From positions 1 to 37,910 of the IMG/VR virus record IMGVR_UViG_3300005804_000099: a DNA stretch of 37,910 nucleotides; one strand, written 5' to 3'. Below the pieces are notes generated by a model, which had not been told where the DNA came from, searched no databases, and worked only from the letters and a program-made list of their open reading frames with translations. Positions 208 to 29,067 of this stretch are shown piece by piece (positions within the stretch are counted from its first letter, which is position 1; each line of letters begins with the position of its first letter). This DNA is from a virus. Lineage: Duplodnaviria > Caudoviricetes. A program made the translations under genes and the position numbers.

Positions 208-239
208 AAAATCCGCCCCTGGAAACAACCAGGAGCGGA
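206..239 (-). terminator. intrinsic terminator ending the late/lysis operon (may be bidirectional)
   Basis: Stem TCCGCCCCTGG/CCAGGAGCGGA (212-239); the A-run at 206-211 is a U-tract on the minus strand; lies between convergent genes. Confidence 0.75.
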
Positions 240-254
240 CGGAACCGAAGGACC

Positions 255-464
255 TTAGAACTTTGTATTAAAGCCCAGCGTGATGCTGGGTTTTCCGTTT
301 TTGATCGTCAGTGATCCGGCGGTATTGCCCCTGCCGAAGTCAACGCCGAATTCCGGTTTCTCGCCCCTGGCGACCCTGACGCGGGCGATTGCGTTCTTGA
401 GTTTGACGCCGACAGCTGCTTCGTCGGCCCCGGCTCGCAAGACTACTGAACCGGGGCGGGCTGA
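255..464 (-). CDS. beta-strand-rich C-terminal extension, probably reached by -1 frameshift from the upstream membrane protein (fusion about 205 aa)
   Basis: Lies in the -1 frame of 443..871 and is open across the slippery site AAACCCT (464-470); its own TTG start (440) has no SD and is inside the hairpin; ends SITLGFNTKF. Confidence 0.65.
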   Translation of the reverse strand, partial: SARPGSVVLRAGADEAAVGVKLKNAIARVRVARGEKPEFGVDFGRGNTAGSLTIKNGKPSITLGFNTKF

Positions 465-470
465 GGGTTT
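427..470 (-). other. putative programmed -1 frameshift signal (A_AAC_CCT + 6-nt spacer + hairpin)
   Basis: In-frame X_XXY_YYZ heptamer at 464-470; stem GCCCCGGTTC (457-448) pairs with GAGCCGGGGC (436-427). Confidence 0.65.
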
Positions 471-871
471 GAAAGCTTTTCCTGCACTTTGTTCATGCTT
501 TCTGCAAGCTTTTCGGCCTGTTTCACGCCATCAGGTGAAAGCTCCGCGCCCGTTTTGGCCTTGAAGATAGATTTCACGCTGTTGATCAGCTCGATCATCT
601 TTCCGATGCCCTTTACCGGCAAAGTGCCGGCAAGGTATTGCCGCTCGATTTCGGCGTAAATGTCGGGCACTGATTCAGCCAGGAATTCATTTTCCATAAT
701 CCGGGCCTTGAGCGCTTCGGCCTGGTTCATTTTTTCCAGCACTGCATCATCAAAGGTGGTTGCTGTTTTGCCGGCACTACCCTTGAGATACGTTTTGATG
801 CCGTCCCAGATTTTGGCCCAGAGAGGCCAGAGAGCCACGATGATTGCCACGTAACCGAGATACTTTTCCAT
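443..871 (-). CDS. LL-H-family holin-like membrane protein (142 aa)
   Basis: SD AGGAG before ATG at 871; one N-terminal TMD (YLGYVAIIVALWPLWA); helical C-domain resembling the LL-H holin pattern; downstream of the endolysin. Confidence 0.65.
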   Translation of the reverse strand: MEKYLGYVAIIVALWPLWAKIWDGIKTYLKGSAGKTATTFDDAVLEKMNQAEALKARIMENEFLAESVPDIYAEIERQYLAGTLPVKGIGKMIELINSVKSIFKAKTGAELSPDGVKQAEKLAESMNKVQEKLSNPQPAPVQ

Positions 872-881
872 GTGTTTGCTC

Positions 882-1103
882 CTATGTTTGGTTGCTCCAC
901 GGGCCACAATGCCCGCATTTCAAGACGTTATTACCTAAATTCCAGACCGAACCGCCGCACCACGGGCACGCCGACAAGCCGCGCAAGTCTAAGTCTATCG
1001 GCCTCTTTGGCGGCTTCAGCCACACGCCCCCACCGCTCAAATCGTTCTCCGATCTGGCAGACGGCCCTGACGGCTTCTGATGTTTCGATTTCTTTTTTGT
1101 CAA
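882..1103 (-). CDS. possible small C4 zinc-ribbon protein (CPWC...CGHC); start uncertain
   Basis: Two CxxC motifs; its stop abuts the SD of the next gene; overlaps 931..1116 in another frame. Confidence 0.4.
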   Translation of the reverse strand: MTKKKSKHQKPSGPSARSENDLSGGGVWLKPPKRPIDLDLRGLSACPWCGGSVWNLGNNVLKCGHCGPWSNQT

Positions 1104-1116
1104 TGGTTTTATCCAT
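931..1116 (-). CDS. hypothetical protein (61 aa)
   Basis: ATG 3 nt after the endolysin stop; helical composition. Confidence 0.45.
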   Translation of the reverse strand: MDKTIDKKEIETSEAVRAVCQIGERFERWGRVAEAAKEADRLRLARLVGVPVVRRFGLEFR

Positions 1117-1119
1117 GGC

Positions 1120-1518
1120 TCAGATGTAGAAATGCGGCTGGTCTTTGAACTTCTTGTAGTTGCCGCCCCACTTCAGGCCGACCCGTTCGGCGACCTGGCC
1201 CATGATTTTCCACAGTTCCGGATCGTTCCAGATGACTTCTTTTCGGCTGTTCAGGATGCGCTGTGGGGCCGCGTCGAAAGCTTTTGCAGCTGGCTTGCCG
1301 TCAAGGGTGAAGTTATGGTCACTTTTGCCGCCCGGCAGCTTCGTAACAATCTTGCCCGGCTTCGTCCGGCCCAAGGCGTAAAGATCATCCTGTTCGGCGG
1401 CTGATCGATACGTGCAGTAGATCAGCACATCGATGCCTTCCGCTTTGCATTCAGCGACAAAGTCCCGGGCCTTGGGTTGCAGATCCGGATGCAGATCTTC
1501 GATTTTTCGACTGGCCAT
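1120..1518 (-). CDS. endolysin, M15 family (L-Ala-D-Glu peptidase-like)
   Basis: Motifs TYRSAAEQDDLYALGRTKPG, SDHN...AFD, WGGN, DQPHF; catalytic domain only; SD GGAG. Confidence 0.9.
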   Translation of the reverse strand: MASRKIEDLHPDLQPKARDFVAECKAEGIDVLIYCTYRSAAEQDDLYALGRTKPGKIVTKLPGGKSDHNFTLDGKPAAKAFDAAPQRILNSRKEVIWNDPELWKIMGQVAERVGLKWGGNYKKFKDQPHFYI

Positions 1519-1519
1519 A

Positions 1520-1861
1520 TTATTTTGCTCCCTCCTGTGCGATTGAAATCAAGGATTTATCAGGGTTTCGATACTGATAAATCGCGCCACCGATGATGCC
1601 GCCGACAAAGATGCAGAGCATCAAGATTTTCACCAAATTTTTGTAGTCGGTCTCAGCAGCCACAACCGCGGTCGTAACTGCTGCTTTTTTGCCGCAGATC
1701 ACGCCGTTCTGTTTCTGACATGCTTCGATCTGTCGCCGCGTTCGCCTTGCAACCCGGCCGGGCAACAAGCGCAGCGTTTCCCTGACTTCTCTCTGGAAGT
1801 CTTTATCATGGCTCTTTTCGGCCTCAAGCGTTGCAAGTCGTTCTTCTGCGGTTGGTGACAT
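1520..1861 (-). CDS. putative holin/lysis membrane protein (N-terminal coiled coil, C-terminal TMD)
   Basis: ATG at 1861 after AAGG; EERLATLEAEK coil; TMD ILMLCIFVGGIIGGAIY; directly upstream of the endolysin. Confidence 0.6.
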   Translation of the reverse strand: MSPTAEERLATLEAEKSHDKDFQREVRETLRLLPGRVARRTRRQIEACQKQNGVICGKKAAVTTAVVAAETDYKNLVKILMLCIFVGGIIGGAIYQYRNPDKSLISIAQEGAK

Positions 1862-12486: not shown

Positions 12487-12793
12487 TTTTTCTTGTTTCC
12501 GCTTCTTTTTTCAGATCGTTAAAAACGGCCAGGCGCTCTTCTCTGGTTGTTGCTTGTTGCGTTGGGGCAGGTCTTGATGCTGATTTTTTCCCACGTAAAA
12601 CAGCAAAAAGAAATTCATCGACAATCGGGATCTTTGCGATCTGGTTGATAGCCGGAACATACTCGTTCCAGTAATCCCAGCCTTGAATTGCTTGCGGGCG
12701 AATATGCCAGGCCCGGGAAATCCGCATCAGCATCTGATTCTGAAATTCATCATCCTGCTGATGCGGCTTAACTTTTCCCGTCAGGCCGTCAAC
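12470..12793 (-). CDS. tail assembly chaperone gpT-like part (G-T fusion about 216 aa via -1 frameshift)
   Basis: Lies in the -1 frame of 12781..13119 and is open from C_CCA_AAG onward; directly upstream of the tape measure gene. Confidence 0.8.
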   Translation of the reverse strand, partial: VDGLTGKVKPHQQDDEFQNQMLMRISRAWHIRPQAIQGWDYWNEYVPAINQIAKIPIVDEFLFAVLRGKKSASRPAPTQQATTREERLAVFNDLKKEAETRKNGTKD

Positions 12794-12799
12794 TTTGGG
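12710..12799 (-). other. programmed -1 frameshift signal C_CCA_AAG + extended stem-loop
   Basis: Heptamer at 12793-12799; inverted repeats 12774-12780/12714-12720 and a perfect 11-bp pair 12756-12766/12722-12732. Confidence 0.8.
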
Positions 12800-13119
12800 T
12801 CATGTACCGGGCTCAAGCGCGGGTCGGTTACTTTGCGGTCAAGCCAGATTCTGTTCAGCAGCTGCATCTGATCAATATCAAAAGCTGCTTCAATTTCATC
12901 GCGCGTGAATTCCCGCTTTTCGGGGTCAGGATTCAACACGATTTCGCCGAGAGCATAGTGTGATCGATCTTTGTTGCTTTCGTTGTGAAATTCTTTAAAA
13001 CAGTCTGCCTGGTATTTCGTGAAGCGAAGCTGACCTTCTTTGACTGTCCCGTCCGGAAACCTGGTTTTGTAAAAAATAGTATTCAATGGCCCTGCAGTAA
13101 GCCAGTTACCTGATTGCAT
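12781..13119 (-). CDS. tail assembly chaperone gpG-like (112 aa)
   Basis: SD AAGGAG before ATG 13119; between tail tube and tape measure; slippery heptamer near the 3' end. Confidence 0.8.
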   Translation of the reverse strand: MQSGNWLTAGPLNTIFYKTRFPDGTVKEGQLRFTKYQADCFKEFHNESNKDRSHYALGEIVLNPDPEKREFTRDEIEAAFDIDQMQLLNRIWLDRKVTDPRLSPVHDPKLTA

Positions 13120-28827: not shown

Positions 28828-29067
28828 TCACAGCCGGCCCCCGTTGATCGTGAAATATTGCAGCAAACTGATCATTTCACCGGAAATATTCACCTGCACC
28901 TGATCAAGCTGCCGTTTCATTTCCTCGGTCAGCTCGATCTTGGCAGCGGCCAGCTCGCTCTGCATTTCAAGCCTGGTTTCGTCGCCCTCTTTATCGACTG
29001 CAGAACTGATCGGGTTGCTGCAGCCGGTCAGGGTCATTAAAATCGCAATAATCAAAAGTTTTTTCAT
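28828..29067 (-). CDS. lipoprotein (79 aa, coiled coil)
   Basis: SD AAGGAG; MKKLLIIAILMTLTG|C lipobox. Confidence 0.75.
   Translation of the reverse strand: MKKLLIIAILMTLTGCSNPISSAVDKEGDETRLEMQSELAAAKIELTEEMKRQLDQVQVNISGEMISLLQYFTINGGRL

Follow-up and report, generated by a model that had tools for sequence, protein, structure and literature searches.

Probable programmed -1 frameshifting in a phage lysis-cluster gene appends a predicted β-strand tail to a membrane protein

Programmed -1 ribosomal frameshifting is established in phage tail-chaperone genes (PMC5009743 and PMC10885494, in the passages available). The locus described here raises the question of whether a membrane-protein gene in a lysis cluster is read in the same way, and what a second, longer product of such a gene might do. 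It lies in a virus record of 37,910 nucleotides (IMG/VR record IMGVR_UViG_3300005804_000099; Caudoviricetes), the whole of which was analysed and is called the window below. The late genes of this 37.9-kb record are on the minus strand, and the late operon ends, in order, with a 113-aa protein, an M15 endolysin, a 61-aa ORF, the 142-aa ORF under study, a -1 frame of 69 codons and a terminator-like hairpin (Table 1). ORFs of a size similar to that of the 61-aa ORF occupy the same place in two related loci, L031 and L101. A contig of 1.38 Mb is recorded as carrying the window's proteins too, and the window is therefore most likely a prophage. Names of Candidatus Riflebacteria are attached to 3 of 55 homologues and a Marinimicrobia name to one of the 55, and because the Riflebacteria-named homologues, like the other, belong to sister lineages, an uncultured member of the Riflebacteria is put forward as a likely host only. 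Riflebacteria possess an outer membrane.

Table 1. Coordinates of features at the end of the late operon; positions are those of the window.
Feature	Position	Strand	Remarks
0-frame ORF, 142 aa, N-terminal TM helix, three helices and coil tail	443..871	-	LL-H-holin-like as a lead only; 63 homologous proteins
Shine-Dalgarno-like AGGAG of the 142-aa ORF	879..883	-	duplex -6.5 kcal/mol
Predicted transmembrane helix, likely N-out/C-in, spanning about residues 5-21	809..859	-	hydropathy and charge asymmetry
Putative slip site A_AAC_CCU	464..470	-	invariant core: tetramer C_CCU, 467-464
6-nt spacer	458..463	-	stem begins 5-7 nt past the heptamer in 11/11 loci
Putative stimulatory hairpin, 10 contiguous pairs, 0-frame stop in loop	427..457	-	offsets 7-12 paired in 11/11 loci
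0-frame stop TAG	443..445	-	overlapped by the -1 codon GTA (Val), which is no start
TTG, sole canonical start in the -1 ORF, without SD	438..440	-	re-initiation may occur here (rival reading)
Extension in the -1 frame: 69 aa with net charge +7, five-strand β-meander predicted, Phe end	255..464	-	
Intrinsic-terminator-like hairpin at late-operon end	211..240	-	
61-aa ORF in lysis cluster, without SD	931..1116	-	starts 3 nt past the endolysin stop
Endolysin, peptidase M15 family, without evident export signal	1120..1518	-	Pfam PF13539 E 1.7e-7; PHROG endolysin E 3e-26
113-aa protein, one hydrophobic segment, second holin candidate	1520..1861	-	sequence; no Pfam/PHROG family match

A sequence-only reading of this DNA had proposed the frameshift from a heptamer, a 6-nt spacer, a 10-bp stem and a 69-codon -1 frame, and on recomputation all of these elements and their coordinates matched. 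The 142-aa ORF has exactly the C-terminal end that was quoted, the heptamer A_AAC_CCT stands in its frame, and the stem (457-448 with 436-427) is formed by 10 pairs, one of them G-U. The -1 frame runs to a stop at 257-255, and a fusion, if made, would be 205 aa long. The folding z-score of the site was -2.1, with 7 of 200 shuffles equally stable, and a second run gave -2.4 (6 of 300). In-frame XXXYYYZ heptamers are not rare in the window (53, in 22 genes), and three of these lie at most 15 codons from a stop. The signal from the window by itself is thus modest and suggestive only, and support beyond chance for a frameshift comes from the homologues. The only start codon in the -1 frame of the window, the TTG at 440, offers an anti-Shine-Dalgarno duplex of just -2.4 kcal/mol, weaker than that of 14 of 15 correctly placed starts of the window (one mis-placed row was left out), which agrees with the earlier statement that the -1 ORF has no Shine-Dalgarno sequence of its own.

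Homologous loci were gathered both by motif and by protein. A first motif scan returned 32 loci with three true homologues (L006, L009 and L031), whose upstream proteins show 25-34% identity to the query and which have in common with it an identical stretch of 20 nt, including six positions that the search pattern left unspecified; a second scan added L074, from a Mu-like phage. Most other matches were due to chance, the layout being missing at 20 of 25 distinct sites of the first viral scan and at 12 of 19 of the second, and L039 and L043 were rejected as chance matches. The motif scan of genome contigs gave six loci, none homologous. Searching by profile within a size range of 68-256 aa returned 55 proteins, each of 125-160 aa, with no fused protein of the 205-aa type among them, and none is fused among the 63 homologous proteins gathered in all. 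When upstream peptide patterns alone were used, 12 loci were found, namely 11 full-length homologues (8 distinct), every one of which has the layout, and a remote match of 63 aa, which lacks it. Protein scans with P0001, A1 or P0052 over viral, metagenome and genome contigs, a set that may lack very close records, gave no true relative, one protein-scan match (L001) was spurious, and GenBank phages held no match. With duplicates dropped, the comparison set consists of 11 distinct loci from seven lineages, the window included; six came from the protein-only scan and four via the motif itself, and L034 and L035, repeats of the L031 site, were left out of the counts. The upstream proteins of these 11 loci are about 25-35% identical.

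The tetramer C_CCT is present in 11 of 11 loci and the full A_AAC_CCT in nine, L099 and L101 retaining the tetramer without the full heptamer; in 18 window genes, CCT accounts for 35 of 348 proline codons. At the protein level, the dipeptide [ND]P is found 6-8 residues before the stop in 60 of 63 homologues (Asn-Pro in 59, Asp-Pro in one), insertions of up to 20 aa fall directly upstream of it, and the residue that precedes it permits an A-ending codon in 59 of the 60. Within the window's own lineage the stop falls 6-8 residues past the NP in 15 of 15 proteins. The dipeptide is missing from P0050, P0052 and the aberrant-ended P0097; for the first two, remote homologues that lack the NP tail, the extension may be dispensable. 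P0052 ends in Lys-Lys-Asn, codons for which could form a different slip site, of the A_AAA_AAC type.

A stem of 7-10 contiguous pairs starts 5-7 nt past the heptamer in all 11 loci, with loops of varying length, while stems that long occur in 0.3-2% of random windows from the same locus for nine loci and in 6-8% for two. The stem register was chosen locus by locus, and offsets 7-12 are then paired in 66 of 66 cells. Covariation, which had been named as a check on the stem, was found to a limited extent: changes on both sides occur at offsets 7, 10, 13 and 14, but represent few independent events, since those at 7 and 10 together split one clade from the rest and count as one event at the level of lineages, which a register shift of 1 nt may explain. 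A 5' stimulatory Shine-Dalgarno sequence has no conserved position across lineages (duplex 0 to -7.3), and no conserved pseudoknot is common to all lineages. Within the Mu-like clade (L091, L092, L093 and L096), hairpin-loop positions 16-23 can form an 8-bp pairing with positions 79-86 after the heptamer; the pairing survives wobble-type changes, is not common to the other lineages and is a possible pseudoknot.

The -1 frame is open for 45-69 codons across the 11 loci, so that tetramer, stem and open frame were found together in every homologous locus compared. Beyond the dual-coding part, synonymous codon changes outnumber non-synonymous ones in eight of eight pairs (12/1, 10/3, 12/2, 10/5, 7/6, 3/2, 6/1 and 8/2, the 12/1 pair being the window against L034), and the reverse holds in the other two frames. 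The tail ends in Phe in 10 loci and in Ile in one. The codon that lies over the 0-frame stop is GTG in seven loci, GTA in two and ATA in two; since it always encodes Val or Ile, selection acts on a β-branched residue and not on a start. No ATG, GTG or TTG is found in the -1 frame of L092, and in L099 and L101 the first start comes only at codon 25 or 28. The Shine-Dalgarno duplex for the -1 frame ranges from -1.1 to -3.5 in the 11 loci, and none has a Shine-Dalgarno sequence there.

Some of these comparisons bear on whether the split is real. A true gene of one 205-aa ORF might have been broken by an assembly or sequencing error, or the tail might be the remnant of a decayed gene, and for this speak only the split itself and L034, a metagenome contig in which the upstream gene (L034:1138-1580) is broken over two frames, probably by an assembly error, with the slip site and tail left whole. 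Over 100-2000 the window is identical to a contig at depth 159 that is possibly its source; among the variants listed from the reads of seven runs none falls at 470-445, and those listed sit in the loop, in the 3' arm and at mostly synonymous positions of the -1 frame. Assembly error is unlikely to have caused the split. Error and decay alike are refuted by the same split in 11 loci, by the lack of any fused protein among the 55 profile matches, by the synonymous excess in the -1 frame and by the agreement of the depth-159 contig, and their joint probability is put at next to nothing.

Similarity between loci with unrelated upstream sequence starts at the first base of the heptamer, which suggests that slip site and tail may have been exchanged between lineages as a module. 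Over window positions 255-470, this module is 91-94% identical at the protein level to those of L031, L034 and L035, and for the upstream genes the identity is about 29%.

The same 10-mer, AAACCCTCAG, also precedes the stop in unrelated phages, in genes that occupy tail-chaperone positions, and is followed there by 87-118 open -1 codons. A_AAC_CCU and then CAG directly precede the stop in L023 (1514-1520), L027, L062 and L064, which represent at least two unrelated phage groups, and these genes lie between tail-tube-like and tape-measure-like genes. PHROGs matched a tape measure after L023 only and gave no name to the putative tail chaperone in L023, in L027 or in the window, so that these identities rest on position. 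The literature on tail-chaperone genes, in its accessible passages, holds no description of an AAACCC slip site, and A_AAC_CCU at tail-chaperone junctions may be an unrecognised natural class. Of 19 distinct slippery sites 7 had the frameshift layout, against none of 14 synonymous control sites that are not slippery (Fisher p 0.012); four of the seven belong to the lysis-gene family, three of 15 remain when the family is taken out, and these three resemble each other. In the first scan, the layout had been present at five of eight sites with a final T and at none of the 17 whose last base is A, C or G.

These findings also have to be set against translation of the tail without any fusion. The downstream frame could be a separate gene of 45-63 aa, reached by termination and re-initiation at the overlapping GTG, or at a TTG two codons on, with the start masked by the hairpin and freed only once terminating ribosomes open the structure, in the manner of the coupled MS2 coat and lysis genes. 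The GTG overlaps the stop as GTGA in seven of 11 loci, gene callers list proteins of 61-64 aa from the overlapping start, the adjacent 61-aa ORF seems to start without a Shine-Dalgarno sequence, so that coupled starts occur in the operon, and a conserved hairpin is compatible with either model. However, four of the 11 loci have no start at the overlap, and L092 has none anywhere, yet the frame is conserved; moreover, the invariant use of the rare codon CCT in C_CCT, the fixed spacing of 5-7 nt and the presence of the same 10-mer at tail-chaperone junctions are left unexplained. Re-initiation as the sole route to the tail is accordingly considered unlikely; it may coexist with frameshifting and add a free peptide at the loci that bear GTG.

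Because conservation extends to slip site, hairpin and a selected -1 frame but not to any start codon, we consider with fairly high confidence that a programmed -1 frameshift at A_AAC_CCU yields a 142-aa and a rarer 205-aa protein from one gene, as the sequence-only reading had supposed. The ribosome would pause at the GC-rich hairpin 6 nt downstream of the slip site, and the tRNA-Pro on CCU would re-pair with CCC one base back; the tRNA-Asn may or may not move as well, from AAC to AAA. The shifted ribosome would then bypass the stop in the hairpin loop and translate 69 further codons. That the universal core is C_CCU points to the A-site tRNA as the one making the key slip. The earlier reading had cautioned that Y=C is a non-canonical slippery class, a caveat that is softened and still retains some force: in E. 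coli reporters with a strong stimulator, C_CC.U is among six tetramers that reach at least 4-fold over background, but the six span 0.26-5.6% and C_CC.U comes towards the bottom of their stated order (PMC4066793, accessible part). The same portion of that source reports that CCN heptamers are weaker than AAN or UUN heptamers and that heptamers of mixed purines and pyrimidines work poorly in E. coli, and it lists three heptamers below threshold, A_AA.C_CC.A being among them and A_AA.C_CC.U not (PMC4066793). Extrapolated from these reporter data, the yield of the long form would be low, at most a few percent, and since the C_CC.U tetramer is weak the long form is probably a minority product.

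The identity of the short form had been given as a holin, which the present results do not establish. The 142-aa protein is modelled with four helices and a coil tail (pLDDT 73), and hydropathy places a single transmembrane segment in 63 of 63 homologues. Pfam and PHROG holin profiles matched none of 11 members, the threshold of PF09682 not being reached. The nearest named family in the ESM Atlas was the LL-H holins (0.84-0.85, below significance), and an LL-H holin was also the top Foldseek match, which was not significant (E 0.23, TM 0.46); an LL-H-like holin is therefore only a lead. LL-H holins have a single N-terminal transmembrane helix and a helical C-domain and are encoded beside an endolysin. 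The family resembles them in the single helix, the helical C-domain and the place in a lysis cluster, and differs in the missing HMM match in 11 of 11 members and in the predicted frameshifted β-tail. Positive charge is greater on the C-side of the transmembrane helix in 57 of 63 proteins and on the N-side in none, and this distribution about the single helix suggests that the C-terminal domain and tail would be cytoplasmic (N-out/C-in).

For the tail, AlphaFold predicts a meander of five confident strands (pLDDT 76), with residues 1-11 at low confidence, in place of the roughly six strands proposed earlier. Net charge is +3 to +7 across the 11 loci, strand alternation exceeds that of shuffled sequences (p<=0.05) in nine of the 11 tails, and the tails are not hydrophobic overall (GRAVY -0.06 to -0.46). 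The terminal residue is aromatic or aliphatic in all 11, and the number of hairpins varies, the window's lineage having one more than the others. Searches with the tail gave no family in Pfam, PHROG or PDB sequences and no significant match by fold in BFVD or PDB; the ESM Atlas returned unnamed viral clusters (0.88-0.91) and sub-threshold Phage_OMP/attacin leads at low recognition. The BAM machinery recognises a β-signal made up of a C-terminal aromatic residue and alternating hydrophobic residues. The present results do not establish that the tail carries such a signal: terminal Phe and alternation are conserved, but the C-in charge asymmetry (57/63), which disfavours export to the periplasm, and a polar residue (T, R or K) at position -3 in five of 11 tails speak against it. 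BAM-inserted β-barrels are closed by eight or more strands, a number that the five-strand monomer could reach only in an oligomer.

A role in lysis is suggested by gene neighbourhood. The gene adjoins an endolysin in five of seven lineages; this is of the M15 type in the window and the Mu-like clade and, as judged by inspection, amidase-like or of another type elsewhere. Inspection found no endolysin within 2.5-3 kb in the L006/L036 and L099 lineages, where the lysis system may be dispersed or the gene may have another role; in L036 it follows a tail-fibre-like gene. No lipobox ORF is present in the window's lysis cluster, and neither an o-spanin nor a u-spanin is evident there. The sole lipobox ORF of the window, at 28828-29067 on the minus strand, lies in the early region, 27 kb from the lysis genes. 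In a survey of phages that infect Gram-negative hosts, no spanin could be identified in about 13% (PMC6139136, available part).

Three functions of the long form were weighed, and disruption of the outer membrane in place of spanins is favoured, tentatively and at less than an even chance. The short form would act as an LL-H-like holin or co-holin anchored N-out/C-in, and the long form would co-assemble with it; once the inner membrane and wall have failed, its β-hairpins, which are amphipathic and cationic and end in Phe, would form oligomers that disrupt the outer membrane. That this amounts to a new class of outer-membrane lysis device, a holin-like anchor with stackable cationic β-hairpins, appended by frameshift in a set low proportion and forming a pore or sheet, is a more doubtful proposition. 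If true, one gene would serve both inner- and outer-membrane lysis without a spanin or lipoprotein, and if the β-tail breaks the outer membrane, this would answer how some spanin-less phages complete lysis.

With the frameshift equally real, the long form might instead act in the cytoplasm to regulate or scaffold the short form, the two making up a holin/antiholin pair at a fixed ratio. Such an arrangement recalls lambda S105/S107, except that the lambda pair arises from a dual start and this one would be a C-terminal analogue. Tails that are not hydrophobic overall, a charge asymmetry of 57 to 0 among the 63 proteins and a low expected yield all fit a regulator; the aromatic or aliphatic end in 11 of 11 tails, the strict alternation and the varying hairpin count would fit a membrane-facing oligomeric sheet better, and the regulator is considered somewhat doubtful. 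The third function is that of an inverted unimolecular spanin, with an N-terminal anchor in the inner membrane, periplasmic helices and C-terminal β-hairpins inserted by BAM via the terminal Phe. Terminal Phe in 10 of 11 tails and the lack of a lipobox spanin in the window's cluster are in its favour, as is the order in Mu-like loci, where the gene stands between the endolysin and the genes preceding the terminase, in what we take to be the spanin slot of Mu. The positive-inside bias, which indicates a cytoplasmic C-domain, the polar residue at position -3 in five of 11 tails and the want of a lipobox or a C-terminal transmembrane helix nevertheless make an inverted spanin improbable.

Comparison with described systems, each taken from the accessible parts of the source, places the locus as follows. 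The unimolecular spanin T1 gp11 (PMC6139136) likewise joins a β-rich domain to an inner-membrane helix, but bears an outer-membrane lipoprotein signal at its N-terminus and, at its C-terminus, a transmembrane segment, whereas here there is no lipobox, the transmembrane helix is N-terminal and the tail is likely cytoplasmic. The phiKT gp28 disruptin (bioRxiv 515445), a cationic peptide that acts on the outer membrane in spanin-less phages, is helical; the present tail is predicted to be β and to be made by frameshift. The MS2 lysis frame also overlaps its upstream gene, and a frameshift was once invoked there (PMC5009743, PMC10885494), but a free lysis protein is made by termination and re-initiation, whereas a -1 fusion is best supported here. 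IS3-family Z_ZZ.N / X_XXZ_ZZN sites (Sharma 2014, PMC4066793) share the C_CC.U and a GC-rich structure 4-10 nt downstream; the present site differs in lying in a phage lysis gene and in the degenerate P-site part of the heptamer in two of 11 loci. Closest in layout is lambda gpG/gpGT, with a slip site near the end of the short ORF and a minority C-terminally extended fusion at a fixed ratio, gpG:gpGT being 30:1 (PMC5009743), and the differences are the lysis-cluster membrane protein, the C_CCU core in place of an A-rich one and the conserved 3' hairpin.

The sequence-only reading knew of no frameshifted lysis protein of this kind, and none was found: among titles, abstract openings and available passages of non-subscription papers no frameshifted holin or lysis protein is described, an LL-H holin with a β-tail and any such protein of a Riflebacteria phage included, and the word 'holin' was not found in the accessible main text of PMC5009743 or PMC10885494. 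A known mechanism in a protein family not found described in that literature is well supported. The -1 frameshifts known in phages lie mainly in tail-chaperone and virion genes, and the present locus is a probable, conserved case in a lysis cluster. It is concealed by annotation pipelines, which either overlook the tail or list it as a small gene of its own, and the nominally weak C_CCU class is kept by strong natural selection and is met again at the junctions of tail-chaperone genes. The window has a gene of its own at the tail-chaperone position (12781-13113, minus strand), in which C_CCA_AAG lies in frame at 12799-12793, six codons before the stop, with a small hairpin and a -1 frame of 109 codons that reaches into the start of the tape-measure gene; it is likely an ordinary frameshift of the G/GT type, in which case the phage would use two frameshifts.
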